Part shown: positions 1 to 15,765 of the stretch, piece after piece
How the letters are laid out: each line of letters opens with the position of its first letter
Numbering within the stretch: the stretch's first letter is position 1
Source: a virus
Lineage: Duplodnaviria; Heunggongvirae; Uroviricota; Caudoviricetes
Strand: one strand, 5' to 3'
IMG/VR virus record: IMGVR_UViG_2571042870_000013
Span: 1 to 15,765 of that record
DNA length: 15,765 nt
Program-made: the position numbers and the translations under genes
Notes under the pieces: generated by a model
The model's database searches: none
What the model saw: the letters and a program-made list of their open reading frames with translations, nothing else
Told to the model about the DNA's origin: nothing

Positions 1-40
1 GACCATTACCAAATAGTTTATATGCTAAAAATTTAGGGAA

Positions 41-3000
41 TCATTTTCCTAATTCTCCAGCTAAAAGTTCAGCCTGCTTCAAAACAGTCTCTGTGGCGAG
101 CAATGACATATCAGGCGGATAACCATATTTTTTGAGCAGACGTTTTACCACCACGCGAATTTTTGCTCTTGCTGCTTCTTTCACTGTCCAGTCAAGACTG
201 ACATTGTTGCGGATAGCCTCCGTAAGTACGACTGCCAGTTCTCGTAGTTTTTCCTTTTCCATTAACTCGCGAGCACTGTCGTTATCTGCAACAGCAGAAT
301 AGAAGGCATATTCATAAGCGCTGAGGTTTAACTGGCTGGCAAGGCTGTCAGATTCCTGGATAGTCTTGGCAAGCTTGATTAGCTCATCAATTACCTCCGC
401 TGCGGTCAGTACCTTGTTCTGGTAGCCATTGATTGCAGAGGTCAGCATATCAATCAGTTTTTTGCCTTGGGTGATACTTTGATTCGAGCGAACCTTGATC
501 TCGTCAGAAAGCAGTTTTTTAAGCGTTTCCAAAGCAATATTTCTGTGTTGGTAATCCTTCATTTCCTGAAGGAATTCTTCAGAAAGAACGGAAATATCAG
601 GTTTTTGTATCCCAGCAGCGTCAAAAATATCAACAACTTTATCGGTAACCAGAGCCTGATCGATAGTCTGTTTTACCCGAACTTCGAGACTGTCATTGTG
701 TTCTTCTTCTGATCCGTCTGAGTTTTCAGTAAATTTATTCAGTCTGGCTTTTACTGCCTGGAAGAATGCTACTTCGGGTGCCGCTTCCATTGCTTTATCG
801 TGCGGTGTCGCCAATGCAAATGCCTGCGATAAGGCTGCAACCGCAGCGAGGAAACGCATTTTACCTTTACCGTTATCCAGCCCTAAAATATGGTTTTCTG
901 ATTCAAGAATAATTGTCAGGCGTTGTGAGGTAGTTGCGGCAAAGTAAGCTTTGTAATCGTATCCATGCATCATGCCTTCCAGGATTTCCAGCTTTTCCTG
1001 CATGAGCGTTACGGCTTCTTCCTGAACCTCAGCAGGATCTCCACGTCCACCTGCATCAGAGTAAAAGGAGAGGGCTTCTTTTAAATCAGAGGCAATGCCC
1101 AGATAGTCAACAACCAGACCGCCTATCTTATCTTTATACACACGGTTCACACGGGCAATTGCCTGCATAAGGTTGTGGCCTTTCATTGGTTTGTCGATAT
1201 ACAGCGTATGCATGCTGGGAGCGTCGAAGCCGGTTAACCACATATCACGCACTATCACCAGTTTCAGCTTGTCGTCGTCATCCTTCATACGGTTAGCCAG
1301 AACCTGACGTTCTTTTTTTGTGGTGTGGTGTTTGGCAATTTCTGGCCCGTCAGCAGCAGAAGAGGTCATGACGACTTTTATTATACCGTCATTTAAATCA
1401 TCGCTGTGCCATTCAGGTTTTAAGGCTATGATTTCTTTATATAGTTCAGCAGCAATACGGCGGGACATGGTAACAATCATGCCCTTACCATGATCGGCAT
1501 TGGATTTTAAGCGCTGCTCAAAGTGCAGAACCATATCCGCCGCAATCGCTTTAATACGTTTTGAACTGCCAATCAAACCTTCGATTCTGGCCCATTTAGA
1601 ACGTTCTTTTTGCGTGAGCGTCAGTTCGTCCTCGTTAAACTCATCATCAAAGTCTTCAATAAGCTGACGACCTTCATCACTGATGGCAATTTTGGCAAGA
1701 CGGCTTTCATAAAAGATACGAACTGTTGCACCATCTTCAACGGCCTGCGAGATATCGTAGATATCAACATAGTTACCAAAAACAGCAGGCGTGTTGACGT
1801 CCGTTTTTTCTATGGGGGTTCCGGTAAAGCCGAGATAGGTCGCATTAGGTAAGGCATCACGCATATATTTGGCAAAGCCGTAAACGGTGCGTTTACCTGT
1901 TACGTTGCCTTCGCTGTCTTTCACGTCAACTTCTTTGGCGCTGAAACCGTACTGGGAACGGTGTGCTTCATCAGCGATAACGACAATATTGGTTCTGTCT
2001 GACAACAACTCATAGATATTGCTGCCATCATCAGGCTGGAATTTTTGAATAGTAGTAAACACCACACCGCCAGAGGCGACACGCAAATATTCTTTGAGTT
2101 CTTCCCGGTTGTTGGCCTGTTTTGGTGTCTGACGAAGTAGCTGGGTCGCGGAAGAGAACGTACCGAATAGCTGATCATCTAAGTCGTTACGGTCAGTAAT
2201 CACAACAACTGTCGGATTATCCAGCGCCAGCACAATTTTCCCGGTATAAAACACCATCGAAAGCGATTTACCGGAACCCTGAGTATGCCAGACTACGCCC
2301 GCTTTGCGATCTCCGGTTTTTTGCGCATTAACAAGATCTTTACTGTTACGTCCCTGCTGGCGCAGTGCCACTTCGGCAGAGGGGGAGTCCGCATTCACCG
2401 CTGAGGCACGAATAGTGGAAAGAACTGCTGCATTGACCGCGTAGTACTGGTGATAAGCCGCCATTTTTTTAACAGTACGGATACTGATAATCCCTTTGCT
2501 GTCTTCATGTTTGCTGGCCTCAAACACGATAAAGTGGCGGATTATATCCAGCAGCGTTACAGGATTAAGCAACCCCTGTAATAAAACTTCAAGCTGTGGT
2601 TGGGTACTGGTGGCTTGCGTTTTACCGTTAGCAGTTTTCCACGTCATATAACGACTGAAATCGGCAGAAACCGTCCCCGCTTTGGCTTCCAGCCCGTCAG
2701 ATATCACATTAAAAGCATTGTAGTTAAACAGACCGGGGATTTGGTTCTGATAGGTTTTAATCTGATTATAGGCACCTGTTACCGTTGCATTTTCGTCAGC
2801 GGCATTTTTAAGTTCGATAACGACTAATGGCAGGCCATTGATGAATAAAATAAGATCAGGTCGGCGGGTATGGTTGCCTTCTTTGATGGTGAGCTGATTA
2901 ATGACCAGAAATGCATTATTAGTGGGATCGTTAAAGTCGATCAGGCTGGCCAGTTCTCCTTGTGTATTACCATCCTTGCTGACTTCGATATTGATTCCTT

Positions 3001-3280
3001 CGGTCAAAAGGCGATGAAAGGTTAGATTGTTTGCCATTAGGTCAGGTGAGCTGATCTGCATCACCTGTTTTAGAGCTTCTTCACACTTCTGCTCACTAAG
3101 GTGCGGGTTAATTCGTTGCAATGCTGTACGCACTTTATCTTCAAGGATAACCTGCTGATAGCTACGTAACGGATTGATTCCACTGGGTTCAATGTCCGGG
3201 CCGTAAACATACTCATAGCCCAGCCCTTGCAGGTGCTCAATTGCCATTACTTCAATATCGGATTCGGTCATCTTTGCCAT
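41..3280 (-). CDS. hsdR: Type I restriction enzyme R subunit (endonuclease/translocase) HsdR
   Basis: 1079-aa ORF. N-terminal PD-(D/E)xK-like nuclease motif (PDLILFINGLPLVVIELK), helicase motif I (HTQGSGKS) and DEAH-type motif II (VVIADEAHRSQ), which is the hallmark architecture of HsdR. SD-like AAGGA about 10 nt upstream of the ATG at 3278-3280. Lies directly downstream of hsdM-hsdS on the same strand. Confidence 0.92.
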   Translation of the reverse strand: MAKMTESDIEVMAIEHLQGLGYEYVYGPDIEPSGINPLRSYQQVILEDKVRTALQRINPHLSEQKCEEALKQVMQISSPDLMANNLTFHRLLTEGINIEVSKDGNTQGELASLIDFNDPTNNAFLVINQLTIKEGNHTRRPDLILFINGLPLVVIELKNAADENATVTGAYNQIKTYQNQIPGLFNYNAFNVISDGLEAKAGTVSADFSRYMTWKTANGKTQATSTQPQLEVLLQGLLNPVTLLDIIRHFIVFEASKHEDSKGIISIRTVKKMAAYHQYYAVNAAVLSTIRASAVNADSPSAEVALRQQGRNSKDLVNAQKTGDRKAGVVWHTQGSGKSLSMVFYTGKIVLALDNPTVVVITDRNDLDDQLFGTFSSATQLLRQTPKQANNREELKEYLRVASGGVVFTTIQKFQPDDGSNIYELLSDRTNIVVIADEAHRSQYGFSAKEVDVKDSEGNVTGKRTVYGFAKYMRDALPNATYLGFTGTPIEKTDVNTPAVFGNYVDIYDISQAVEDGATVRIFYESRLAKIAISDEGRQLIEDFDDEFNEDELTLTQKERSKWARIEGLIGSSKRIKAIAADMVLHFEQRLKSNADHGKGMIVTMSRRIAAELYKEIIALKPEWHSDDLNDGIIKVVMTSSAADGPEIAKHHTTKKERQVLANRMKDDDDKLKLVIVRDMWLTGFDAPSMHTLYIDKPMKGHNLMQAIARVNRVYKDKIGGLVVDYLGIASDLKEALSFYSDAGGRGDPAEVQEEAVTLMQEKLEILEGMMHGYDYKAYFAATTSQRLTIILESENHILGLDNGKGKMRFLAAVAALSQAFALATPHDKAMEAAPEVAFFQAVKARLNKFTENSDGSEEEHNDSLEVRVKQTIDQALVTDKVVDIFDAAGIQKPDISVLSEEFLQEMKDYQHRNIALETLKKLLSDEIKVRSNQSITQGKKLIDMLTSAINGYQNKVLTAAEVIDELIKLAKTIQESDSLASQLNLSAYEYAFYSAVADNDSARELMEKEKLRELAVVLTEAIRNNVSLDWTVKEAARAKIRVVVKRLLKKYGYPPDMSLLATETVLKQAELLAGELGK

Positions 3281-3338
3281 GCGTACTGTCCTTATTGCCG
3301 CTTAACCAGAGAGCGGGCTGTACACCCGCATAATTATT

Positions 3339-4532
3339 TTATGCTACTGATGCGATTGCTTCTTCCGCATACTGAACCCGTACTTCGCCGCTCATCAGTT
3401 TGGGAAGGAGAGTGTCGCGCAGAGATTCTATGTTTTTAATTTGTGAGTTGTTAATACTTATTTTTTTCCAGAAGAAATCAATCTGTGTAGTGAATTCTTT
3501 CACCATACACTCCGGGGGGAGTTTGAATTCTGGGCGTTGTAATCCGTCAGCCGACAGCTGATTTACAGTTGAACCGTTAGTTGCAGCAACAACTTGCTCA
3601 TGCATATCTTTGGAGCAAAGTAAATAGTACAGAAAAGCATTGGTTAAGTAACTATCGTCATTGATGCTGATTTTAAATAAATGATGCGTATATATGGATA
3701 ATTCGCTTTCTGTTTTTGGAATTATAGCAGGATACCCTATGAGTCGATATTCATGGCCCTGTTCTGTATTGGCTACAATGATATCCCCAGGCTTTATAAT
3801 ATGCCTTTCTTTAAAATCACCATTGTAGTATTTTATACCTGCACTCTTATAACCACCGCCCTCAAGTACTGAGTTCAAACTAAAAAGTGGAATGCCGTTA
3901 TCTGACGTGGTAAGGCCGGCTCCCTTGTAGCTTAATCCCTTAGCTACTGTAATATGACAATCAAGAGTCGTTATTTCCCAATCCGCATGCGTCTCTTCAA
4001 TAAACCACTGTCTAAATAGGGTTTCTGCCATGGATTCCAGAGTTTTATTCTGGCGATGAAGCAGGTCTATTTTGTCTTTAAGAGAGGACAAAATAGAGGC
4101 GATGGCTTTTTGTTCAGATTCATCAATTGGTAAGTAAAGAGGAATCAAATTTAGCGATGCTTTATTTAATTTTGGTTGAGCAGCACCTGTTAAATAAGGA
4201 GATAGATCAAGTTGTGAAAAATATTGGATTATCAATGCCGTTAAATGGGGCTTTTTAGCTTTAAGGACATGAGCGTGATTATTAACCCAAAATTTTCCAG
4301 TAGCTTCAAATGCTATAGGTGTTTTTCTGGACTTTAAGTTTTCTCCATCTTCAGAAATAAGGATGTAGCTGCCATCAAAAATATAATTGTCGATATAATC
4401 GACAATTCCTGACGCTCCATAATATGGAAAATTTCCTTTCTTATGGGCTCGTTCCATAGCACTCAAAGGAATTCTTTGTGCGTTGCAAAAATCTGCTAAT
4501 TCAGTTATACAAAAATTTCTCCACCTACTCAT
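3339..4532 (-). CDS. hsdS: Type I R-M specificity subunit HsdS (two target-recognition domains with central and C-terminal conserved spacers)
   Basis: 397-aa ORF with bipartite HsdS layout: a variable N-terminal region, a central conserved helix ([13 protein letters not shown]), a second variable region, and a C-terminal conserved segment ([14 protein letters not shown]). Its start overlaps the hsdM stop by 4 nt (ATGA at 4529-4532), indicating translational coupling. Confidence 0.88.
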
Positions 4533-6076
4533 AAAACCACCTTCGCCAGATTATCAACGATGGCTCTGTTCAGACGCGCCTCTTCTTCCAGTTGCGCTTC
4601 AAACTCAGCTTTAAGAGCCGTAAAGCGTTCTTTAAAGTCGAAATCGTCTTCTTCATCAGCAAGACCAACATAACGGCCAGGTGTCAGCACATAATCGAGT
4701 TTAGCAACTTCAGCAATGTCTACTGACGCACAGAAACCAGCGACGTCTTCGTAGTCGCCACCTTTGTTACGCCAGTTATGATAGGTATCAGCGATGGTTT
4801 TTATATCGTCGTCAGAAAGTACTTTGGTACGACGATTAATTAAATGACCGAGATTACGGGCATCAATAAACAGAATTTCTTTACTACGATCACGATACTG
4901 GTTGCTGTTATGACGGTCACGGCGCATAAACCATAATGCAGCAGGGATCTGAGTATTCAGGAACAGCTTTGCCGGTAAGTTGACGATACAGTCAATCACA
5001 TTGGCATCTTTTACCAGTGCAGCACGAATATCACCTTCACCAGAGCTTTTAGAAGTTAATGCCCCTTTTGCCAGAACAACACCCGCTTGCCCTTTAGGAG
5101 ACAAGTGATACAAAAAATGTTGCATCCATGCAAAGTTAGCGTTGCCAGCAGGTGGAATGCCATATTGCCAGCGGGCATCACCACGAAGCTGCTCACCAGA
5201 CCAGTCGGAAACGTTAAACGGTGGGTTAGCTATGATAAAATCAGATTTCAAATCTTTGTGAGCATCGTTAAGAAATGAACCTTCATTATTCCAGCGAACG
5301 TGTTCAGAATTAATCCCACGAATTGCCAGGTTCATTTTTGCCAGACGCCAAGTGGTCTGGTTGGACTCCTGCCCATAGATCGAAATATCGTCAATATTTC
5401 CCTGATGTGCTTCTACAAATTTTTCTGACTGAACGAACATACCACCAGAACCACAGCAGGGATCAAAGACACGGCCTTTATAGGGTTCCAGCATGTTAAC
5501 CAGCAGGCTTACAATAGATTTTGGCGTATAGAACTGGCCGCCTTGTTTGCCTTCTGCCAGTGCAAATTCACCTAGGAAGTATTCGAATACGTGACCTAAA
5601 ACGTCAGCAGAGCGTGCTTTGGCATCTCCTAGTGCAATGTTGCCAATCAGATCTATCAGCTCACCCAGAACAGTGGCGTCGAGGTTTTGTCGGGCATAGA
5701 CTTTCGGCAACACACCTTTTAACTGTGGATTGCCCGCTTCGATAAGCTCCATCGCATCATCAACCATCTTACCGATTTCAGGAAGCTTGGCCTTAGAAAT
5801 CAGATAGTTCCAACGTGCAAGCTCAGGGACAAAGAAAACGTTGTAAGCGGTGTACTCGTCTTTGTCTTCCGGATCAGCACCTGCGAACTCGCCTTTACCG
5901 GCTTTCAGCAACTCATAATGAGATTCAAAAGAATCAGAAATGTACTTAAGGAAAATGAGGCCTAGTACGACGTGCTTGTACTCGGCTGCATCAATGTTTT
6001 TACGCAGTTTGTCTGCCGCTTTCCACAGGATGACCTCTAACGGGTCTGTTTTGATTTCTTTAGGTTTTCTGGCCAT
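4529..6076 (-). CDS. hsdM: Type I R-M N6-adenine DNA methyltransferase subunit HsdM
   Basis: 515-aa ORF with a SAM-binding motif I ([12 protein letters not shown]) and catalytic motif IV NPPF ([12 protein letters not shown]), typical of gamma-class N6-adenine methyltransferases of Type I systems. First gene of the M-S-R operon. Confidence 0.92.
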
Positions 6077-6224
6077 TAGCGTAACCTTATGAAGGGGGAA
6101 GATGGCCCTATTTTGCCTTAAAGTTCCGCTTGTTACGAGCTTATACAGCGATTAATTATTATCTGGTTTTAGTGTGTTCGTGTAGCTCAGCAAGTGCAAT
6201 GACTCATGGAGTAAATGCTTTGTA

Positions 6225-6557
6225 GCGGGATTGTAGATGTCAGGTCATTGCCGTCAATGGAGCCAGTGTCATTGGCATAATTGCTGCACAGCCGATGCCA
6301 CGCGCACATTCGCTAGTTCACTGTGGTTCATCGTGTGTACTACACCAGTACGCAGTCCGGGAAGTAACGGCATGGCAGAATCGTTTGTAAAGACGTTCAA
6401 GCGGGATTATGTGTACGTAGATGATCTGCTGGATGCAGTCTAAATGATGGAAACAATGGCAGAATAGATAGAGGATTATAATAATCTGCATCCACACAAG
6501 GGGTTGAACATGAAATCGCCACGCGAATATCGTGATGCCATATTAGCAGTTAATTAG
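6225..6557 (+). pseudogene. Remnant of a DDE (rve/integrase-core type) IS transposase C-terminus, interrupted by two in-frame stop codons
   Basis: A single reading frame gives ...TPVRSPGSNGMAESFVKTFKRDYVY...DLLDAV(stop 6441-6443)...MAE(stop 6465-6467)IEDYNNLHPHKGLNMKSPREYRDAILAVN(stop 6555-6557). The SPxxNGxxESF...LK and YNxxRPH...SP.EY-like motifs are the conserved C-terminal signature of IS3-like DDE transposases. The N-terminal catalytic part is missing and the frame is broken. Confidence 0.6.
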
Positions 6558-6997
6558 CCGTGTCCGTTTTAGCAGGGACAACTCCAGTATTCAAAAAAGC
6601 TTTCTTAGTGCATATGCATGAGGTGAATAGATGTACAGGCTATGACAAACCATAGTTGTAATTTTTAATGTTTAAAATTCTCCGTTACAGTAGGACATTC
6701 CTTGTACATTAAATTCCATCTAAGGTTGAATTTTTAATTTAATAAGGTCGCAATCTAAAATGATGTGTATGGGGTTATTTGTAAGATGATTTTTTATTTT
6801 TGATAGTGGTGATTAAGGGAGCGGGTAATGTTTGTCTATTCAAAAATATAGAGATTCAAGGTTGGTAGCAGTTTGGCTTCTTTTATAACCGAAGGGCAGA
6901 AAAGCAAGGGGAACTCGAAGAAGCAAGCGCAGCGGCTTCGCAGAGTTAGCCCTTGCTTCTCTTATAATTGGCATTATTCATTCAAGAACAATAGGAT

Positions 6998-7017
6998 CTT
7001 CGCTTGTACAAGCGAAG
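6998..7017. repeat. Perfect 20-bp palindrome CTTCGCTTGTACAAGCGAAG
   Basis: Read directly from the sequence: arms of 9 bp around a central TA, with perfect dyad symmetry. Lies in the gene-free spacer downstream of the ParB-like operon. Confidence 0.9.
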
Positions 7018-7672
7018 CTATAATAAAAACAATCAATTAATAATTTTAAAAGTATTAAACAAGAACCTATTGACATTCATAAAATACAAGTTATTTATAA
7101 TGTATGCCATAAATAAAAAGTTTTATGTCATATGTATCCTGCACTATGTGCAGTTAATGTACCACTTGTCCCATAGATGGGAATATTGGAAAGGTTACTT
7201 TGTTTTGAAGTAGCCTTTCGTCCTTCAATATTAACGATTACTTATTGCTATTACCAAGTCCAGTCGAATCGAAGAACATCTTTTATCTGAAACGACTCCT
7301 AATACCCGGTTAAAGCCACAATATCTCTCGCATACGTAGACCAAAGAAAAATTATGATATTAACTATGTGATTTTTTTTAGTGTTAAGTTGAATAATTAA
7401 ATACTGGAGAGTTTTCTGTGCACTACCAATTGCTGGTTCATCTGTTCTGCCGCTGATGTTTCTGACGAATCTCCCGGTGACACAGAACTGTCCCTCTCTA
7501 CCAGCCTTTATTCGACTCAATGTCCGGCTGCTGATACGCAGTTATCCCTTCGTATCAATGACTGACACTTAAACGTAATGCTTTGGTTGCTGGCGTATCT
7601 GACAGCTTCTTCGGCGTGAAGGTCGTTGTGTAAGTATACTTCTTGGTTTATTTAGGCTATATAAAACCATGA

Positions 7673-8569
7673 CTATGACTTGCTGTTTTCAGTAAGAGTC
7701 TTATCATCCAAAGAATTTATTCTAGAAATTCTTTTTAACTCATTAAGATAATCAACCTCGTTTTCTAAGAACCAATGAAGAACTTTAGAATTGCCAAGTA
7801 ATTTATTAATATATGACTGGATTATAACGAATTTCAACATATCTGAACCATACTCGGTTTGAAGCTTTTTCGTTTCTTCCGAAGTTGTTGCCATTTCTTG
7901 TTCCAGACGAAGTATGGTTTTTTTTATGTCCTTTTTATAGGGAGTGTTTTTCCCTTTATTTACTATCATCGATGCCGGTGTTGCATCCAAGATGCTCATT
8001 GCAAATTTTTTACTATAATTATCAAAATTAATCATTGTACCGACTGCTTCAATTTGGCGAATTGGCTTCATTTTCCTCAAAACGTCAAATGTAGCCTTAG
8101 GTATAGGTTTATCAGAAAGTTTCGCAATTACACTTGGATCTATGCCGTTCATCACATTCGCTTTATCTTTTATGGCATCAACAGATATGCCCAAAGCAGC
8201 ACTAAGTTTTTCAATTGATACTTTTGCCAGAGACTTAATTATCATTCTATGTTCTTCAACTACATTTATATGATTCACTTGTTTGTTAGGAGTGAAAGCA
8301 TCATCTATGCTCGAAAGTATACATGGAGCTTTTTCTATACCTAAGTCTTTTAAAGCCTCAACCCTTAAATGGCCATCAAGTATCTTAGTGACATCTTTAT
8401 CTTTGTCATAGAATACTATTATTGGTTCAATAATACCTAAGCTTTCGATAGAGGTAACTATTTGATGATATTTATGGCTTCGCTTTACGTTTTCTAATAA
8501 TTCCTTAGATGGAATTAACTTATTAGTTTCCAGGTAAATAAAATTATCGCCAAAACGTATCTGAATCAT
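7673..8569 (-). CDS. Divergent ParB/Srx-fold protein (ParB-like partner 2), function unknown
   Basis: 298-aa ORF. N-terminal region resembles the ParB N-domain (IEPIIVFYDKD...ILDGHLRVEALKDLGIEKAPCIL) with a DGxxR-type box, followed by an HTH-like segment (SIEKLSAALGISVDAIKD). It lacks the arginine-rich ENxxRR box present in the upstream paralogue. Its start overlaps the upstream gene's stop (ATGA at 8566-8569). Confidence 0.6.
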   Translation of the reverse strand: MIQIRFGDNFIYLETNKLIPSKELLENVKRSHKYHQIVTSIESLGIIEPIIVFYDKDKDVTKILDGHLRVEALKDLGIEKAPCILSSIDDAFTPNKQVNHINVVEEHRMIIKSLAKVSIEKLSAALGISVDAIKDKANVMNGIDPSVIAKLSDKPIPKATFDVLRKMKPIRQIEAVGTMINFDNYSKKFAMSILDATPASMIVNKGKNTPYKKDIKKTILRLEQEMATTSEETKKLQTEYGSDMLKFVIIQSYINKLLGNSKVLHWFLENEVDYLNELKRISRINSLDDKTLTENSKS

Positions 8570-9462
8570 TTTAATACCTCTTTGTTTACTGGGGTTAATA
8601 TCTGAGATGGTAGTTCTGAAAGATTCTCTTGTTCAAGTATATGTTGAAAGCTTTTATTCATCATTATGATGTTAAAAATCTCATTTACTATTAGTAGGTT
8701 GGTTTTTATGAATTTTGAGTTGTTATAAACAGATTTATGTTCAGCGATACTATTTTCATAAAGCTCAATCAACTCCTCTGCAGTCATCCTTTTTGATGGT
8801 TTGTGATAATAAAATCCGGCTGCTTTTGCACCTTTATTCCCAACTGTTCTTTGATTTAGAATGTGTTTTATCTTTATAATGTCCCGACTTTTTATTAATT
8901 TTTTATCATATGCTTCGGTAAGAATATCTTGTGCTTCCTCAGTTTCACATCTTGCAAATTGCACTGCGAGATACAGAGGCAAATTACCCCGTTCGACTGC
9001 TGAGAGAAGTTTATGCTCTCCCTTATCAAGTAGCATATTAATACTGCTCACCCAGTTCGATGAATATCCAGTAATCTCACTTATTTCGGAGTCTGAAAGT
9101 CCTCTGATTTTCATGTCTTTAATCACCTGTAATAACTCATTAGAACGTGGTCTTCTCCTTGCAATGTTTTCAACTAAACTCATAACGTAAGCATCTTCTT
9201 CTGATACATCTCTTATAATTGCTGGAATAATAGTTTCACCTAATGCAACGAGAGCCTCTATTCTCCCTTGACCACAAATTAAAGCATATTTGAAATCGCC
9301 TTCATCAATAGCTCTTACGCTTATTGGCTTGCTTAATCCTCTTTTTTTTATGCTTTCCTTTATTTCTTCATGCACTACCTTATTTCTTGTTCGTGGGTTA
9401 AGAAATTTTATTTTTGCAATCTCAATTTGAATTATTGGGAATTCATTTTTTTCAGGCAGCAT
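8566..9462 (-). CDS. ParB/Spo0J/KorB-like DNA-binding protein with HTH (ParB-like partner 1)
   Basis: 298-aa ORF. Colinear with ParB-family N-domains: NPRTR, PISVR, GQGRIEALVALGETIIPAIIRDVSEEDA, then the arginine box LVENIARRRP, then an HTH (GLSDSEISEITGYSSNWVSSINMLL). Its start overlaps the end of the serine recombinase gene by 11 nt (9452-9462). Confidence 0.72.
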   Translation of the reverse strand: MLPEKNEFPIIQIEIAKIKFLNPRTRNKVVHEEIKESIKKRGLSKPISVRAIDEGDFKYALICGQGRIEALVALGETIIPAIIRDVSEEDAYVMSLVENIARRRPRSNELLQVIKDMKIRGLSDSEISEITGYSSNWVSSINMLLDKGEHKLLSAVERGNLPLYLAVQFARCETEEAQDILTEAYDKKLIKSRDIIKIKHILNQRTVGNKGAKAAGFYYHKPSKRMTAEELIELYENSIAEHKSVYNNSKFIKTNLLIVNEIFNIIMMNKSFQHILEQENLSELPSQILTPVNKEVLK

Positions 9463-11008
9463 ATAGTTCCCTCACTTTCATGCGAGTAATAATTTGTAGA
9501 AGTTTATCAAGATTATCAAATCTATAGAGATCTAATCGAATGTTGTTTGTTTCCGTCATGCACATTTTATTATATTCGTTTTCAATCTTTGGTATGATAT
9601 AAAAATCAAGAGGTGAAATATTTTGTGAATTCATTCGTATAACAATTGTTATGTCTGCTTTCTGTGAGTTATCAAACCGGACTTTCCATCTAAGTTTACC
9701 TGATTTCATATGTATGCATTTAGTAACAAGGACGGAAATTAAAAACTCATCATTGATGTAAAGCATTGGGGCATATTTATACTCGTCTATATGACAGTTA
9801 CTTTTTAAAATTTCACCCTTAAAATCCTCAATTATCTCTGAGTAAAATGATCTTAGTGCTTCATTTATTTTGAGATAGCTGTAATCATGTTCTGGCTTAT
9901 AACCAATCAAAGTATATGCTCTTAAAAGACCACCAAATCGGGTTCTATAAACAGAAGATGAAGGGCCTGTATCATCTTCATCAATGATAAAGCCTGATAG
10001 TTTTCCATTAGATTCTAATTTTTGTTTTAGTTTTTCTAATAGATCTTCATTAGTCAAATGAATGGATCGGAGCTGAATTATTTCTTGAGCTTTATTGTAT
10101 TTTTTCTTTGAAATAATAGGTTTATATGCCTTGTCACATCTAACCCATTCATGTTTGGGGTTTTTTACAAGCCTACTTTTTAATTTAGATGAGGTTTTGT
10201 TATATATGTTGTTTCCAATATATTTTTCATTTGTCAAAATTTGATGTATTTTTGCACGAGTCCATAATGTTCCATTTTCTGCAGGTATGTTCTGTTCATT
10301 TAATCTCTCAGCAATAATGAATTCTGGGACGTTATTATCTATAAAGAGATCATATATTCTATTTACAATTTTTATTTCATTTTTTGGTCCCGGAATTAAT
10401 ATTACCCTATCTGTTTGAATACTCTTTCTTTTGCGGAAACTCAATATTTCTTTAGCTATGCCATTTTCGTCTACTAAAAGACGTCTCAGCCCATAACCAG
10501 CCATACCGCCTTGATGATAACCAAGCTTTATTAAATTTACTTGCCCTATAAATACCTTTTCAGATAGATTCCTGCTGTGATATGCAGCACTAGATCTTTT
10601 TATATTCAGTATAACAGAGGACTCTAAAGGGAAATCTTTAGTGGGTATAGGTTCGGAACAATATATAAGATCTACACCATTTCTCTCAAATAGAAAGGAA
10701 TAATATGCCGCTTCATCACTATTTTGAAAACGACCAAAACGGCTCACATCATAAAATAATACAGCCTGTATATCTATTTTCTTTTGTTCTACATCGCTAA
10801 GTAACTGCTGCAAAGAATGCCTGCCTACGATACTGACTCCGCTCTTACCTGCATCATCGTAGGTATAAGCGATTTCCATATTGTTCTTTTCAGCATAATC
10901 TTTGATATATTCGGACTGATTATGTAAAGAATATTGCTGATGGTCGGTAGACATCCTCAAGTACTGCGCGACCCTAACTCTATGATTTTTGTCATTTTCG
11001 CTAGCCAT
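9452..11008 (-). CDS. Large serine recombinase (resolvase/invertase catalytic domain plus recombinase domain plus long C-terminal extension)
   Basis: 518-aa ORF. N-terminal catalytic motif YLRMSTDHQ (putative nucleophile Ser20), DDAGKSG, and VLFYDVSRFGR; a recombinase-domain segment (GYHQGGMAGYGLRR...LWTRAKIHQILTNEKYIGNNIY); and about 230 further residues typical of large serine recombinases. SD-like GAGG precedes the ATG at 11006-11008. Confidence 0.88.
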   Translation of the reverse strand: MASENDKNHRVRVAQYLRMSTDHQQYSLHNQSEYIKDYAEKNNMEIAYTYDDAGKSGVSIVGRHSLQQLLSDVEQKKIDIQAVLFYDVSRFGRFQNSDEAAYYSFLFERNGVDLIYCSEPIPTKDFPLESSVILNIKRSSAAYHSRNLSEKVFIGQVNLIKLGYHQGGMAGYGLRRLLVDENGIAKEILSFRKRKSIQTDRVILIPGPKNEIKIVNRIYDLFIDNNVPEFIIAERLNEQNIPAENGTLWTRAKIHQILTNEKYIGNNIYNKTSSKLKSRLVKNPKHEWVRCDKAYKPIISKKKYNKAQEIIQLRSIHLTNEDLLEKLKQKLESNGKLSGFIIDEDDTGPSSSVYRTRFGGLLRAYTLIGYKPEHDYSYLKINEALRSFYSEIIEDFKGEILKSNCHIDEYKYAPMLYINDEFLISVLVTKCIHMKSGKLRWKVRFDNSQKADITIVIRMNSQNISPLDFYIIPKIENEYNKMCMTETNNIRLDLYRFDNLDKLLQIITRMKVRELYAA

Positions 11009-11178
11009 GCACGAAACCTCATGGATGATTCAATACAATGTAGTGGATAAAATTGATCAAATTTCAACCGAATTCAACTGTTTTATCATTGATTAGAGCG
11101 AATTTGGTAGATCTTCGAGGTGTATGATAATCGAGAAGAGATGTGAATTATTTAGCTGATATGACCGACAGCTTTCGT

Positions 11179-11228
11179 TATGTGGACTCAATGTCCCCAT
11201 TTGTAAATGGCTATGCTTAGTCCACATA
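11179..11228. repeat. Nested inverted repeat: 10-bp arms (TATGTGGACT / AGTCCACATA) enclosing an inner palindrome CCATTT-GT-AAATGG
   Basis: Read directly from the sequence in the intergenic region between the P4-type integrase stop (11291) and the serine recombinase start (11008). Outer arms at 11179-11188 and 11219-11228; inner dyad at 11197-11210. Confidence 0.8.
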
Positions 11229-11290
11229 GGTTAATGGTGTGATTATTAATTCTTTAACTAAATCAAGATAGTTAATCCATCATGGGAGAG

Positions 11291-12520
11291 TTATGCGGCA
11301 ATAACTTTGCATTTTTGAGACGAAACATAGTCACTCCACCATTGCATGAGAACCACCCGTTCAGTGAGATACTCTGCACGATTGTAGGCTGCAATTATTT
11401 CATCTTTCTTCGAGTGGGCAAGGGCGGCTTCTAAGACATCAGTCCTAAACTTGCCAGACTCCTCAGCAGCCGTTCTAGCAATGGATCGCATACCGTGAGC
11501 TACAAGCTCACCTCCGAAACCCATACGGATTATGGCCGCATTAGCTGTTTGTTCATGCATGTGATTGAGTGGAGCTTTGATACTGGGGAACACCCACTCT
11601 CTATGCCCGCTGATGACTTTCATTAAATCCAAAACTCGCAAAGCTTCTTTGCTCAGTGGAACTTTGTGAGGCTTCTTCATTTTCATAAACTCCGCCGGGA
11701 TGTTCCACATGCCAGTTTCAATATCAATATCTGACCATCTTGTGCGAACAGCTTCACCTGGGCGAACCCATGTGAGAAGTTGCCACTCAATCAGTAGCCT
11801 TGTTTCCAAACGGATAGAAGCATTGTTTAGAGCAACCAAGAAGCGAGGGAGTTCGGAAGGGGGTAATGCTGGCATATTCTGTTTTTTTGGCTTGCTGAAC
11901 CGTTGCCCCAGGTTGTCTGCCGGGTTGAATTCTATGAGTTCTTCTGTTGCTGCATAGCGGAAAATTTCATTCAGGCGGGATATGATGCGGCGAAGTGTTT
12001 CAAGGACACCTCGTTTTTCTATGGGTTCTAAATGCTGTTTAAGCATTTTAGGGCGAATCTCCTTAATTGGGGTATCACCCAATGTGGAAAAGATATTTCT
12101 CTCTAGGCTTCGCCAGATGTCGTTAGCATGATCTTGGGAGATGCCTGACGTTTTGACTTTCTCATCAAGCCACTTCTTGGCTACTGCTTGAAATGTATGT
12201 TCCGTGGCATCTTTCAGTGCATTGGCTTTTTGGTTGTTATGAACTTGGGGGTCTATACCATTTGTAAGCAACGACAAGTATTCATCACGTAAAGCTCGTG
12301 CCTTCGCAAGTGTAAGGTGAGGATAGGTTCCTAAGCTCACCTTAGTTCGCTTTTTGGTCACAGGCACTGCATATCTGAAATACCAATTTTTCTTCCCTCC
12401 CTTCGCCAGGGGAGCGATTCGCAACAGCAAACCATCGCCGTCAAAAAGGTCAACCTCTTTTTCGGCAGGTTTGGTGCTTTTGATTTCAGTGTCAGTGAGC
12501 TTCTTAGCGATTTTGGCCAT
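11291..12520 (-). CDS. int: P4-type tyrosine integrase (CP4-57 IntA-like); true start taken as the ATG at 12518-12520 rather than the upstream GTG at 12601
   Basis: N-terminus MAKIAKKLTDTEIKSTKPAEKEVDLFDGDGLLLRI...WYFRY matches the characteristic N-terminus of P4-family integrases. C-terminal catalytic region has HGMRS (HxxR) and AAYNRAEY (catalytic Tyr). It is adjacent to a copy of the ssrA 3' end, the classic target of this family. Confidence 0.9.
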   Translation of the reverse strand: MAKIAKKLTDTEIKSTKPAEKEVDLFDGDGLLLRIAPLAKGGKKNWYFRYAVPVTKKRTKVSLGTYPHLTLAKARALRDEYLSLLTNGIDPQVHNNQKANALKDATEHTFQAVAKKWLDEKVKTSGISQDHANDIWRSLERNIFSTLGDTPIKEIRPKMLKQHLEPIEKRGVLETLRRIISRLNEIFRYAATEELIEFNPADNLGQRFSKPKKQNMPALPPSELPRFLVALNNASIRLETRLLIEWQLLTWVRPGEAVRTRWSDIDIETGMWNIPAEFMKMKKPHKVPLSKEALRVLDLMKVISGHREWVFPSIKAPLNHMHEQTANAAIIRMGFGGELVAHGMRSIARTAAEESGKFRTDVLEAALAHSKKDEIIAAYNRAEYLTERVVLMQWWSDYVSSQKCKVIAA

Positions 12521-12618
12521 GTTTGGGACCCTCGATTTTAGGACCCATCTTCGTGGGTCCCATTCAGGGTGCCATAACTCGTAGTTCTCAGCAATTCTCA
12601 CTAGACTACAATAGACGT

Positions 12619-12650
12619 AAAAAAGCCCGCAGAGCTTGTGCTGTGCGGGC
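12619..12650 (-). terminator. Rho-independent terminator (minus strand) between the att core and the integrase
   Basis: On the minus strand the sequence reads GCCCGCACAGCACAAGCTCTGCGGGC followed by TTTTTT: a GC-rich stem of about 7 bp with a loop, then a T-run. Confidence 0.55.
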
Positions 12651-12686
12651 TTAGTAGACTTTACTGAACTTCAGTACATCAATATT

Positions 12687-12731
12687 TGGTGGAGCTGGCG
12701 GGAGTTGAACCCGCGTCCGAAATTCCTACAT
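12687..12731 (-). repeat. ssrA: 45-nt copy of the 3' end of the tmRNA gene ssrA (attachment-site core / direct repeat); not a full ssrA gene
   Basis: The minus strand reads ATGTAGGAATTTCGGACGCGGGTTCAACTCCCGCCAGCTCCACCA, which matches the 3' terminus (T-arm, acceptor stem, CCA) of enterobacterial tmRNA as I recall it. Identity stops after these 45 nt; the adjacent sequence at 12732 onward has no resemblance to the ssrA body. Confidence 0.85.
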
Positions 12732-12846
12732 ACCATTTTCACTATAACAAAAACATTAACTTGCGTTTAAAATCATCAAGTTAGTATTATCTTATGTTTG
12801 TCCGTTTTACTCATTTTTAATGCTCTGTCGCCAATCTGTCGCCACA

Positions 12847-13497
12847 TTATCCGCTGCTTGAGTTGAAATCTGTGGGTTTACGGAGATTAGATCTTATGGT
12901 TTTTTCAGCGATACGAATAGTCGAAAATTTATGCAGGTTCATCAGTGCTATACAAATCCCAAGTGCAAAAAAGTAGCTGGACATTCCTAATCTTTGCATA
13001 TCAGTAAGTTTATTAATTTTCTCTAAAATATGTTGGGTTACTAATCCTTCGTATACAAAAGGTATGGAAGTTATAAAACCGCCAATAAAATAGAATGTTA
13101 AGCTTATCAGCTTTATAGATTTTCTATATATCCAAAAGCGATATCTTTTTTTTGTCCATTTAAATATTTGTTTTTCACTACTAATAGAAATTAGTTTTTG
13201 ACACTTGCTATAGTTATCAATGTCATTAACTGGATCGTTAACACCTAAAAGAATCTCTCTCTGTTCTGGAGTTAGGTTCTTATCTTTTGTTATTGCAGCA
13301 ATACCATAATTATATGCAACTTTCTTGATTTTGGGATCTTCAGTATTCTTATATAGATTGTATGCAAACTCGCTAATGTTTTTGCGCGAGTTGAAAATCT
13401 TATCTTTGGGGAAAACCCAGCCGGATCTTACCGCGAGCATCTGTATGATCGGGGTAATTATCGCGACAGAATACTTAATTATCTCGTTTATGTTCAT
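12847..13497 (-). CDS. Hypothetical small membrane protein (accessory 'moron'-like gene) immediately downstream of the prophage integrase
   Basis: 216-aa ORF, AT-rich relative to the neighbouring int and cI genes. Hydrophobic segments (LISLTFYFIGGFITSIPFVY, MSSYFFALGICIALMNL) suggest 2-3 transmembrane helices. Its start is only 14 nt downstream of the int stop on the same strand, so it is probably co-transcribed with cI-int. No family recognised. Confidence 0.55.
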   Translation of the reverse strand: MNINEIIKYSVAIITPIIQMLAVRSGWVFPKDKIFNSRKNISEFAYNLYKNTEDPKIKKVAYNYGIAAITKDKNLTPEQREILLGVNDPVNDIDNYSKCQKLISISSEKQIFKWTKKRYRFWIYRKSIKLISLTFYFIGGFITSIPFVYEGLVTQHILEKINKLTDMQRLGMSSYFFALGICIALMNLHKFSTIRIAEKTIRSNLRKPTDFNSSSG

Positions 13498-13511
13498 GAT
13501 CCATTGTTTAC

Positions 13512-14528
13512 TTAAATTAAGTTATAAAGAGGGTTTTTTGTTACTGCATCCTCCAGGTGGTCTGGAGAGAAGTGTGCATAAATCATCGTCATTTTAATAT
13601 CTGAGTGCCCTAAAATATCACGTAAAACGAGTATGTTCCCACCGTTCATCATAAAATGGCTGGCAAATGTATGGCGCAGGACGTGGGTGCATTGGCCTTC
13701 CGGTAGTTCAATACCGGCCCGTTTTACCGCCCGTTCAAAGGCTTTTCTGCATGGTGTGAATAATTTCCCTCGGTTTTTGGGTAGCTCGTTGTACAGATCC
13801 TGAGATATCGGTACGGTACGGTTTTTTTTACCCTTGGTCTTTGTATAGGTAATCCGGTATTTCGATAGTTGATGGCCCTGCAGGTTTTCAGCTTCACTCC
13901 AACGAGCACCGGTTGCTAGGCATATTTTTGCAATCATTAGCAGACTGGGGCTTTGAGAATCAGCACAGGCATCCAGCAGACGTTTAATTTCCTCCGGGGT
14001 TAGGAACGCCAGTTCACCCTCCGTAATTTTAAATGTTGGAAGCCCGGCAAGCGGGTTGGGGGCTGACCAGTGGCCCAGCTTTTTCAGTGTACCAAAAACA
14101 GATGATAGGTTGCGCTGTTCAAGGTTTACCGTGCGGGGCTTAACGGGTGACATGAACGAGCCGTCTTCATTTTGGACCTCCCCCTTTAATCTGGCTTCCC
14201 GATATTTTGTGAAATCACCTGCTGTCAGCTCAGAGGCGATGGGATCGCCTAGACCATTACAGATAATTCTAAGTTTCGCCATCAGGCGTTTGGGGTCTGC
14301 GAGTGTTTGACCATATAGGGAATACCACTGCTCAATCACTTCTGATAATCGCCGCCGATCTTCCTTCTCACCAAGCCATGGCTTTTTGTTTACTTCGTTC
14401 ATGGTGAAGTTTTCGAATGCTATGGCTTCGCCTTTCGTGGCAAATTGCTTACGCACGCGCTTGCCATTGCGTCCATTGGGATAGCACTCACACAACCATT
14501 TTCCGTTCGGCTGTTTTCTGATGGTCAT
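13512..14528 (-). CDS. int: P2/186-type phage integrase (tyrosine recombinase)
   Basis: 338-aa ORF. N-terminus (NGKW...RNGKRVRKQF...EAIAFE) and C-terminal catalytic region (HVLRHTFASHFMMNGGNILVLRDILGHSDIKMTMIYAHF) closely parallel P2 Int as recalled (ATHALRHSFATHFMINGGSIITLQRILGH...MVYAHF). Sits directly downstream of a CI-like gene, as in P2/186. Confidence 0.9.
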   Translation of the reverse strand: MTIRKQPNGKWLCECYPNGRNGKRVRKQFATKGEAIAFENFTMNEVNKKPWLGEKEDRRRLSEVIEQWYSLYGQTLADPKRLMAKLRIICNGLGDPIASELTAGDFTKYREARLKGEVQNEDGSFMSPVKPRTVNLEQRNLSSVFGTLKKLGHWSAPNPLAGLPTFKITEGELAFLTPEEIKRLLDACADSQSPSLLMIAKICLATGARWSEAENLQGHQLSKYRITYTKTKGKKNRTVPISQDLYNELPKNRGKLFTPCRKAFERAVKRAGIELPEGQCTHVLRHTFASHFMMNGGNILVLRDILGHSDIKMTMIYAHFSPDHLEDAVTKNPLYNLI

Positions 14529-14529
14529 A

Positions 14530-15162
14530 TCAAAGGCTCTTAATGATTTTCAGTGCACGGCCTACTACCTCAATGTCATCCAGGCCACACTCAAACGATG
14601 AATCATCCTGATGCACTACTAATCTGTTTCCCGGGAGTCGAGTCAATTTAACAATGCTTTTTATCCCGTCGATATCGACTAACCACATACCATTCACTGG
14701 TGGTGTTTGGTTGCGATCTATTAAATAAGAATCACCAGAAGTAGTCACCAGCAGTAGGTTGCTTGAGTCTGAGGGGAGTATGCTGCTATCAATGATTGCT
14801 TTTCCAGCATCGACCAATAAACCACCGTTGAGAGTCGCCTTGTCAATTTCAGGAGATACTAGTTCAGAAAGAGGTACAACCTTGCTGGAGTTCACGGAAT
14901 TGATATTTTTTTTAGGTTCAATGTTTGGACCTGGCTCCCCCTGTCCGGTGGTTAGCCACAGTAAAGAAACTCCTGTTTCCAAGGCGCACTGAATCACCCA
15001 CTCTGCAGGAAAACTATCTCTTAAGTATCTGTTTGCCATGGTGCTTTTTGATGCGCCTAAGTGATCGCAAAGTTGCTGTCTGGACTTGAAATCATAGGCT
15101 GCCATTAGTCTATGGATAGCTTCTCTTCCCCCTGTATTCTCTCCAGCCTTTACCTGTATCAT
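14530..15162 (-). CDS. cI: Phage 186-type CI immunity repressor
   Basis: 210-aa ORF with CALETGVSLLWLTTGQGE and GMWLVDIDGIKSIVKLTRLPGNRL...FECGLDDIEVVGRA, closely matching conserved blocks of coliphage 186 CI as recalled. Transcribed divergently from the Cox/Apl-like and CII-like genes. Confidence 0.85.
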   Translation of the reverse strand: MIQVKAGENTGGREAIHRLMAAYDFKSRQQLCDHLGASKSTMANRYLRDSFPAEWVIQCALETGVSLLWLTTGQGEPGPNIEPKKNINSVNSSKVVPLSELVSPEIDKATLNGGLLVDAGKAIIDSSILPSDSSNLLLVTTSGDSYLIDRNQTPPVNGMWLVDIDGIKSIVKLTRLPGNRLVVHQDDSSFECGLDDIEVVGRALKIIKSL

Positions 15163-15281
15163 TTTTTAATCCTGTTGACGTATCAAATATTGGATCGTAG
15201 TATCTCGATGTATCAAATATTGAATCAATTAAAACGAGATAAAACGACGTAAACCAAACCTTAATCGGGAGATACTGCACT
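15163..15281. promoter_or_regulatory. Prophage lysis/lysogeny switch region: candidate rightward sigma70 promoter (TTGACG 15175-15180, 17-nt spacer, TAGTAT 15198-15203) and two near-identical 17-bp operator-like repeats (15180-15196 and 15210-15226)
   Basis: Read from the sequence. GTATCAAATATTGGATC and GTATCAAATATTGAATC are each internally near-palindromic (ATCAAAT/ATTgGAT) and lie 30 bp apart, between divergent cI and cox/apl-like genes. The first repeat overlaps the candidate promoter spacer. Confidence 0.5.
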
Positions 15282-15524
15282 ATGAGCACTGATATTTCAA
15301 TTCGTGTACCAAAAGAGATGGCTACGCCTGCAGAGTTCGCGGAATGGGAAGGTATCTCCCGCGGCTCCGTGTATCAAAAAATTCACCATGGTCAGCTTGC
15401 TAAATACATGGTCAAGAAAGAAAAAAATAAAGGCCGCGTAAACCTTCGTTATCTGATGTACAAAACTGATCAGGTCCGTGAATCCCTCGGTCATTCCAAC
15501 TTCCGCGTCATTGTTGGTAAGTAA
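15282..15524 (+). CDS. Cox/Apl-family small HTH protein (excisionase / early-lytic repressor candidate)
   Basis: 80-aa ORF in the position of cox/apl (between cI and cII, divergent from cI). The segment ATPAEFAEWEGISRGSVYQKIHHGQL parallels the HTH of P2 Cox as recalled (AIPYQEFAKLIGKSTGAVRRMIDKGKL). GGGAG SD-like sequence upstream. Confidence 0.6.
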   Translation: MSTDISIRVPKEMATPAEFAEWEGISRGSVYQKIHHGQLAKYMVKKEKNKGRVNLRYLMYKTDQVRESLGHSNFRVIVGK

Positions 15525-15555
15525 GTTCAATTATGGGAACTTTCTAAGGGGGCAC

Positions 15556-15765
15556 CATGTTTGATTACAAGATTTCCAAACATCCGCATTTCGATGAAGC
15601 CTGTAGGGCTTTTGCACTGCGTCACAACCTGGTGCAACTGGCAGAACGTGCAGGCATGAATGTACAGATTCTGCGGAACAAGCTGAACCCAGCTCAGCCT
15701 CATTTATTAACCGCACCAGAAATCTGGCTGCTTACCGATCTGACTGAAGATTCAACGCTGGTAGA
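15556..15765 (+). CDS. cII: Phage 186 CII-like regulator, 3'-truncated by the window end
   Basis: ATG at 15556 is preceded by an AAGGGG SD. Translation [69 protein letters not shown] closely matches the N-terminus of coliphage 186 CII as recalled. It has no stop within the window, which is why it is absent from the supplied ORF track. Confidence 0.8.

Follow-up and report, generated by a model that had tools for sequence, protein, structure and literature searches.

The window analyzed here is a 15,765-nucleotide stretch of DNA (positions 1 to 15,765 of the IMG/VR virus record IMGVR_UViG_2571042870_000013) that carries three adjoining minus-strand genes, referred to below as the trio. The first gene encodes a large serine recombinase (SR), and the other two encode different ParB-fold proteins, ParB1 and ParB2. 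The segment is 100% identical to many Escherichia coli chromosomes. Roughly an eighth of complete E. coli genomes, that of the laboratory workhorse BL21 among them, and hundreds of proteobacterial species carry the trio. Annotation pipelines describe its products as plasmid partition proteins and a generic recombinase, a label that is probably misleading for the chromosomal copies. The trio itself is apparently unstudied: no description of it was found in the literature, and one paper merely lists the genes beside an Stx2l prophage (PMC9227347).

Genes and proteins of the trio

Neighboring genes of the trio overlap (Table 1). SR and ParB1 share 11 nt (ATGCTGCCTGA, at the junction ...TATATGCTGCCTGA), and ParB1 and ParB2 share ATGA (junction ...AAAATGA). 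Both overlaps are read directly in the sequence, as are the open reading frames (ORFs), and they uphold the gene calls and translational coupling of the initial annotation. The absence of ParA, also claimed there, holds in the window, where none of the ten ORFs of at least 150 aa is a ParA or other Walker ATPase; neighborhood clustering of related loci, which included no dedicated ParA/Walker search, brought no ParA-like gene to the surface. The AT-richness of the module was noted as well. The contrast is real, with a GC content of 0.29-0.37 over positions 7001-11000 versus 0.43-0.48 in hsdR, but the flank is about 45% GC rather than the half that was proposed. The ratios of nonsynonymous to synonymous substitution (dN/dS) are 0.03-0.10 for SR, 0.07-0.31 for ParB1, and 0.04-0.08 for ParB2 (over the trio, 0.04-0.10 for the window against E. 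coli strain D7 and 0.03-0.31 against Leclercia), values indicating that all three genes are under purifying selection.

SR has intact catalytic and recombinase domains (Pfam Resolvase, 7.7e-22; Recombinase, PF07508, 6e-22), and its catalytic Ser20 lies within the motif RMSTDHQ. Residues S20, R90, and R93 are invariant (alignment A3). In Foldseek searches with an AF2 model, the catalytic domain matches TP901-1, Sin, and IS607, and the SPbeta and Bxb1 integrases align over only about 320-330 residues. The features of a large serine recombinase are thus present, save for the zinc ribbon with its embedded coiled coil, the domain that in these enzymes normally governs synapsis and directionality. 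The last approximately 190 residues are highly conserved and are confidently modeled as a helical plus beta subdomain. Residues 313-518, searched alone, have no Pfam match, and the C-terminal region has neither a conserved cysteine cluster in the alignment nor a structural match in Foldseek; on the strength of these alignments and models, SR is taken to lack the usual zinc-ribbon/coiled-coil module and to have an atypical C-terminus.

ParB1 and ParB2 are remote relatives, with 30% identity over just 63 aa. ParB1 matches Pfam ParB_N (1.6e-13) and, in a weak C-terminal domain, RepB (8.5e-8), whereas ParB2 matches RepB strongly (2.2e-24) and ParB_N weakly (1.1e-5). A sequence search of the PDB with ParB1 finds Spo0J (2.5e-12) as well as ParB, Noc, and KorB. 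The AF2 model of ParB2 (pLDDT 79) matches CTP-bound ParB, Noc, and KorB in Foldseek over about 200 residues, with E values down to 3e-9. The two non-identical ParB/KorB-fold proteins proposed in the initial annotation are therefore confirmed by Pfam, by Foldseek for the ParB2 model, and by sequence matches for ParB1. Among 84 family members compared, ParB1 retains the motifs LNPRxRN, GLxRPI, and SLVENxARR, and its box II is GQGR (within GQGRxEA) in place of GERR. ParB2 has the motif DGHLRxEA and an invariant Cys83 (alignments A1 and A4). Only the last arginine of the GERRxR arginine patch is retained in each protein, family-wide (e.g., GQGRxEA in ParB1 and DGHLRxEA in ParB2).

Spread, boundaries, and chromosomal setting

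Relatives of ParB2 number 1384 in a large protein collection. A scan of one genome per species yielded at least 521 relatives, and gene order was examined in 80 of these loci. The order SR, ParB1, ParB2 is kept in 76 of the 80, with SR aligned over its full length and with a 4-nt overlap between ParB1 and ParB2 as the norm. These loci span the Alpha-, Beta-, and Gammaproteobacteria, and independent look-ups in Rhodovulum, Paraburkholderia, and Dickeya gave the same order. Homologues occur on 90 plasmids in PLSDB, chiefly Rhizobiaceae megaplasmids. In the Enterobacterales, the trio lies inside islands or mobilizable elements, often adjoining a P4-type integrase and a transfer RNA gene, and an SR 100% identical to that of E. 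coli is found in Klebsiella, Citrobacter, Enterobacter, Cronobacter, and Salmonella. Multi-copy matches on S. meliloti pSymA were set aside as uninformative (a solo ParB2 homologue in a rearranged region).

The limits of the conserved unit are sharp. Between genera, nucleotide homology of 85-93% starts at or shortly before SR and stops shortly after ParB2, and the flanks are unrelated. In Agrobacterium, a 3904-bp block comprising a small divergent gene and the trio is 96.9% identical between a pAtC58-type plasmid and pAt1D1460, which share nothing else; on pAtC58 of Agrobacterium fabrum C58, the module lies at about 40.3-44.2 kb. Imperfect direct repeats of 22-28 bp (TCGCCTTGAAGGGAGTTGAACCGTTGGCCC and ACACCTTGAGCGGAATCGAACCTTCGGCCC) stand on either side of this block. 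A third plasmid, pAtCFBP5507a, matches on the left flank as far as one similar site, that site included, and has no module. The trio of Rubrivivax is bracketed exactly by a 61-bp imperfect direct repeat (z = 7 versus shuffles), whose right copy constitutes the 3' terminus of a DUF45/M48-like gene adjoining hsdR. As read from the sequence, this is the pattern of elements that insert at the 3' end of a gene and restore it.

In E. coli, the trio is part of an island integrated at ssrA (transfer-messenger RNA, tmRNA), in the order ssrA, P4-type tyrosine integrase, SR, ParB1, ParB2, insertion sequence (IS) remnants, Type I restriction-modification (R-M) system, IS elements, and glaH/gab. Of 5426 complete E. 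coli genomes, 661 (BL21 among them) carry the trio, in every case on the chromosome; in strain D7, a trio of 94% identity is housed in another composite island. Strain XJ6.2 shares the ssrA island, R-M system included, but has no trio in it. Relative to XJ6.2, positions 7226-11290 of the window (4065 bp) are inserted exactly between the integrase stop codon and the terminator region. This three-hairpin terminator region directly follows the integrase stop in the trio-less island (L002:7530-7620) and lies 4065 bp away from it in the window. The trio may be co-transcribed with the integrase, since it sits between that gene and its terminator on the same strand. In BL21, a minimal island consists of the integrase, the trio, and IS1, with no R-M system. 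Because XJ6.2 has the R-M system alone and BL21 the trio without it, independent acquisition of the two is supported by island comparison, as the initial annotation had held.

Table 1. Features of the window and examples of structured RNA in related loci
Feature	Position	Strand	Basis and remarks
SR (large serine recombinase)	9452..11008	minus	518 aa; Pfam domains
ParB1 (ParB/Spo0J-like: N-domain, helix-turn-helix, RepB-type C-terminus)	8566..9462	minus	298 aa; Pfam, NCBIfam, PDB sequence search
ParB2 (RepB-like divergent ParB-fold protein, long helical C-terminus)	7673..8569	minus	298 aa; Pfam, alignments, AF2/Foldseek
3' tail of conserved unit	7623..7672	minus	Homology with strain D7 copy stops at ~7625
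Non-coding leader, P4-type integrase stop to SR start	11009..11290	minus	283 bp; sequence
50-bp imperfect palindrome in leader	11179-11228		Outer arms TATGTGGACT/AGTCCACATA, center GT; significance unproven
Hairpin-rich integrase terminator region	7130..7225	minus	Window versus L002 comparison
IS3-family (ISSen4-like) transposase remnant	7491..7622		~72% identity to ISSen4 transposase genes, many E. coli records
P4-type tyrosine integrase of ssrA island	11291..12601	minus	Pfam; context only, trio immediately 3' on same strand
Unknown 216-aa ORF	12847-13497		Prophage end
Integrase	13512-14528		Prophage end; Pfam
CI-type repressor	14530-15162		Prophage end; Pfam
Structured RNA, example in related locus	L020:10901-11103		
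Structured RNA, example in related locus	L034:9377-9580		
Structured RNA, example in related locus	L056:10889-11092		

The E. coli copy is probably immobilized, or stranded, with eroded ends, yet with genes that are intact and not decaying. This view is taken because the copy has no small divergent gene of the kind found in alphaproteobacterial copies, because the IS3 remnant truncates the region downstream of ParB2 (the remnant marks the boundary and lies outside the module), and because no excision polymorphism was seen: among the E. coli matches listed, no genome has the same integrase allele without the trio. A direct repeat (GGACATTGAGTC, at 11177-11196 and 7507-7525) was rejected as an end of the E. 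coli module; it is of borderline significance (z of about 2.8), its downstream copy falls inside the IS3 remnant, and it is treated as chance. Likewise, the 50-bp palindrome of the leader was dismissed as an att site, as it does not rise above shuffle controls and is not preserved in the Enterobacter and Leclercia copies. An rve_3-like fragment (6237-6443) and the ISSen4-like IS3 fragment bracket the AT-rich non-coding stretch that leads from the R-M system to the trio.

Mobility, known systems, and competing explanations

The limits of homology, the repeats in Agrobacterium and Rubrivivax, and the island settings in the Enterobacterales fit a site-specific integrative element driven by SR. 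A discrete unit, att-type repeats, and an unoccupied site, by which such elements are recognized, can apparently be discerned in Agrobacterium and Rubrivivax and are not demonstrable for the E. coli copy. The best explanation, with a probability of roughly 0.55, is that an atypical large serine recombinase drives a widespread family of integrative modules, compact at about 3.5-5 kb, and that the trio is their conserved core. SR would excise and integrate the module at flanking repeats, in the manner of Ccr recombinases on staphylococcal cassette chromosome (SCC) elements. Because ParB1 and ParB2 strictly co-occur, are translationally coupled, and share RepB-type C-termini, they probably act together, binding module DNA as accessory factors. 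Most likely the pair would control or assist recombination, given an SR without a zinc-ribbon/coiled-coil domain, or else hold or silence the excised or integrated module.

If the module is self-mobile, it would be among the smallest serine-recombinase elements known and would offer a natural case of ParB-fold proteins partnering a recombinase rather than ParA. It would then be of interest for the repurposing of ParB clamps and for the control of large serine recombinases, a class of enzymes in wide use as genome-engineering tools.

Several observations weigh against an integrative module. In most loci, direct repeats are faint or cannot be detected (z > 3 in only 5 of 71), and the E. coli window offers a single candidate, the repeat whose downstream copy falls in the IS3 remnant. 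No circular junction or excision product was found, and a synthetic attP-like junction was unmatched in PLSDB. Plasmid pAtCFBP5507a differs on the right flank and thus falls short of a clean empty site. A separate tyrosine integrase adjoins many copies, and SR is therefore not needed for integration of the island. The part played by the ParB pair is deduced from context, no ParB1 or ParB2 binding sites having been identified, and partition would be of no obvious use to a module that has no replication function. A T-arm-like att motif was considered as a family-wide signal and rejected, since it is lineage-specific only.

The known systems closest to the trio differ from it in composition. As in SCC elements (CcrA/CcrB/CcrC), a large serine recombinase is combined with short imperfect direct repeats around the element and, in Rubrivivax, with insertion at the 3' end of a gene; CcrB is also the best NCBIfam match of SR. 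However, the scores are 63 bits for CcrB and 41 bits for CcrC versus a cut-off of 900, so SR is not a Ccr, and the module has one recombinase rather than a pair, a different C-terminal domain, ParB-like partners, and no cargo. The integration module of Dehalococcoides ssrA islands (DsiB/DsiA) likewise has an operon, located at the ssrA end, that encodes both a ParB-domain protein and a serine recombinase resembling CcrB (PMC3146451). That module has six genes, which include a second small recombinase, a single 210-aa ParB-domain protein, and RecF-like, Mom-like, and primase-like genes, and its serine recombinase itself targets ssrA (PMC3146451), whereas in E. coli a tyrosine integrase is found at ssrA and the trio has two ParB/RepB proteins of about 300 aa. 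Some integrative and mobilizable elements (IMEs) with serine integrases also carry ParB, for which a role in maintenance has been proposed (PMC5704250). Neither SCC/Ccr elements, nor the Dehalococcoides module, nor these ParB-bearing IMEs contain the trio.

ParB1 and ParB2 share the N-domain and helix-turn-helix (HTH) fold of the CTP clamps ParB/Spo0J, Noc, and KorB, and ParB1 keeps box I and box III-like motifs. In contrast to those clamps, ParB1 has GQGR and ParB2 has GHLR in place of GERRxR, the trio has no ParA, KorA, or membrane-targeting partner, and no parS-like site was identified. The C-terminal RepB domain (PF07506) of the RepB protein of repABC is matched by both ParB1 and ParB2, but the score for TIGR03454, 35.6, falls below the cut-off of 201, repA and repC are missing, and the linkage is to a recombinase instead. 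The par region of RK2/RP4 (parCBA plus parDE) is a functional analogy only. In both systems, accessory proteins that act on DNA are encoded in one operon with a serine resolvase, and divergent ParDE genes accompany some alphaproteobacterial module copies. The RK2 proteins themselves are of another kind, ParA being a small resolvase and ParB a nuclease with a different fold.

Several claims of the initial annotation can be judged at this point. Its statement that the gene combination matches no described system stands: PADLOC recognizes no system, NCBIfam matches are sub-threshold only, and literature searches brought up no description. The recurrence of the three-gene synteny in unrelated genomes, which it had proposed as a check, is borne out by the 76 loci from three proteobacterial classes. 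Of its hypotheses, a nested element moved by SR is favored by the discrete boundaries and the flanking repeats in Agrobacterium and Rubrivivax, with the qualification that the E. coli copy shows eroded ends and no excision polymorphism.

A further proposal, to which we give a small share of the probability, is that this is a minimal element in which an SR without a control domain relies on heteromeric ParB-fold, possibly NTP-dependent clamps to choose, synapse, or license its sites, with participation, in the alphaproteobacteria, of the RNA described below. Such an arrangement has no described precedent. If ParB-clamp-controlled recombination of this kind is real, it occurs in hundreds of species, E. 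coli BL21 among them.

A function in defense against phages or plasmids, in which the ParB-like proteins load on and clamp invading DNA, the recombinase disrupts or traps it, and the cassette moves among defense islands, is similarly improbable. Its neighbors lend it some color: Type I R-M systems in E. coli and Rubrivivax, a Type III R-M system in Buttiauxella, AbiTii in Raoultella, RloB/AAA in E. coli D7, Fic in Salmonella and on pAt1D1460, and AbiEii, Fic, and a restriction endonuclease near the module in pAtC58. The persistence of purifying selection in a probably immobile copy points the same way. However, defense genes are the usual cargo around mobile-element insertion points anyway, and the flanking repeats and duplicated gene end point to self-mobility. 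No system model in PADLOC-DB 2.0 fits (SR and ParB1 are unmatched, and ParB2 matches only the ParB_N part of a methyltransferase model), and no paper on such a system was found in the literature. Moreover, the trio is intact in E. coli B/BL21, the classic permissive host of the T phages.

Comparably doubtful is a role in stabilizing the carrier, with SR resolving multimers or tandem arrays and the ParB pair tethering or partitioning an excised island or plasmid by means of a ParA borrowed from the host or a plasmid, in analogy to the parCBA/parDE stability region of RK2. The proposal of maintenance for ParB in serine-integrase IMEs (PMC5704250) is in keeping with this, as are the homologues on PLSDB plasmids, the frequent position of the module within mobilizable islands with MobA/TraD, and the ParDE toxin-antitoxin genes divergently upstream in about 16 alphaproteobacterial loci. 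Yet the module moves independently of its carrier, and every one of the 661 E. coli copies is chromosomal. There is no linked ParA in the window, and none surfaced in the related-locus clustering (no dedicated search was made there). The BL21 island contains just the integrase, the trio, and IS1, so it holds nothing else to stabilize. Canonical ParABS partition is unlikely.

Least credible, and very improbable, is the recombinase-controlled switch that the initial annotation raised as its third hypothesis (e.g., inversion causing phase variation of the adjacent Type I R-M system): the recombinase does lie near hsdS, but no significant or credible inverted repeats flank any segment, the E. coli matches listed are colinear and in a single piece apart from IS interruptions, hsdS is single, and the trio occurs without R-M genes in BL21 and most other taxa.

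RNA, genes, and prophage sequences associated with the module

Approximately 54 alphaproteobacterial copies have a non-coding element of about 200 nt on the sense strand, starting 1-27 nt past the ParB2 stop codon (examples in Table 1). Homology between loci ends at a terminal hairpin (GGGCGTGCCGG...CCGGCACGCCC). The predicted fold has five main hairpins (ten helix segments) with 52 pairs, 17 of them with compensatory changes. In the alignment, 97.9% of cells are paired, a value reached by none of 500 shuffles, and many G-U pairs lie on the sense strand. No Rfam 15 family matches the element, which on this covariation is a candidate for a new structured non-coding RNA family. The covariance model R1 built for it finds no match in the E. 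coli window or in beta- and gammaproteobacterial copies. Downstream of ParB2 in E. coli, the region is partly IS3 remnant and has no excess fold stability (z = -0.7), and enterobacterial copies have no common sequence there. The possibility that the RNA acts as a guide (similar to bridge or seek RNA) was rejected, as matches of the variable loops to a locus's own flanks are no better than cross-locus matches.

Of 90 loci, 55 have a small gene of about 130-170 aa that is divergent from SR (e.g., L095:6083-6490 and L005:5041-5424), and these 55 all belong to the alphaproteobacterial type. The gene is likely a HTH regulator of the module, because it has a conserved motif (TGANEKTVKNWFxGxxGPSGEHL) and no Pfam match. 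An analogous gene occurs on a low-GC virome contig (L100:4264-4773), and the gene is absent from all Enterobacterales copies. No conserved palindrome that could serve as a parS site is common to the whole module family, and lineage-specific palindromes are present. Tandem 14-bp palindromes (TGCACAAATGTGCC N7 GGCACAACTGTGCC) are kept 180-400 bp upstream of SR in L039, L053, L054, L064, and 12 other loci; they are candidate operators or ParB-type binding sites in one sub-lineage.

Genes of the Fic family adjoin the module in Salmonella and on two Agrobacterium plasmids, in differing orientations (L088:6385-7002, L095:9965-11146, and L098:4381-5991). This adjacency may reflect chance, a favored context for insertion, or a link in function. 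The record NZ_CP110863.1 (L096), labeled 'Lactiplantibacillus plantarum plasmid plas1', is a 13.5-kb linear sequence of 65% GC with an alphaproteobacterial-type module; it almost certainly represents a contaminant contig and not a plasmid of Lactiplantibacillus.

A phage origin of the trio was considered and rejected: nucleotide comparison with 50,697 phage records gave no match, and the single protein-level match is to an unverified 7.5-kb virome contig. Beyond the island integrase, positions 12602-15765 of the window form the end of a P2/186-like prophage (Table 1). A motif resembling the 3' end of ssrA (GGGAGTTGAACC) lies at position 12700, and no tmRNA gene is present inside the window. 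The prophage end beyond the integrase and this ssrA-like motif together suggest that the ssrA site is occupied in tandem.

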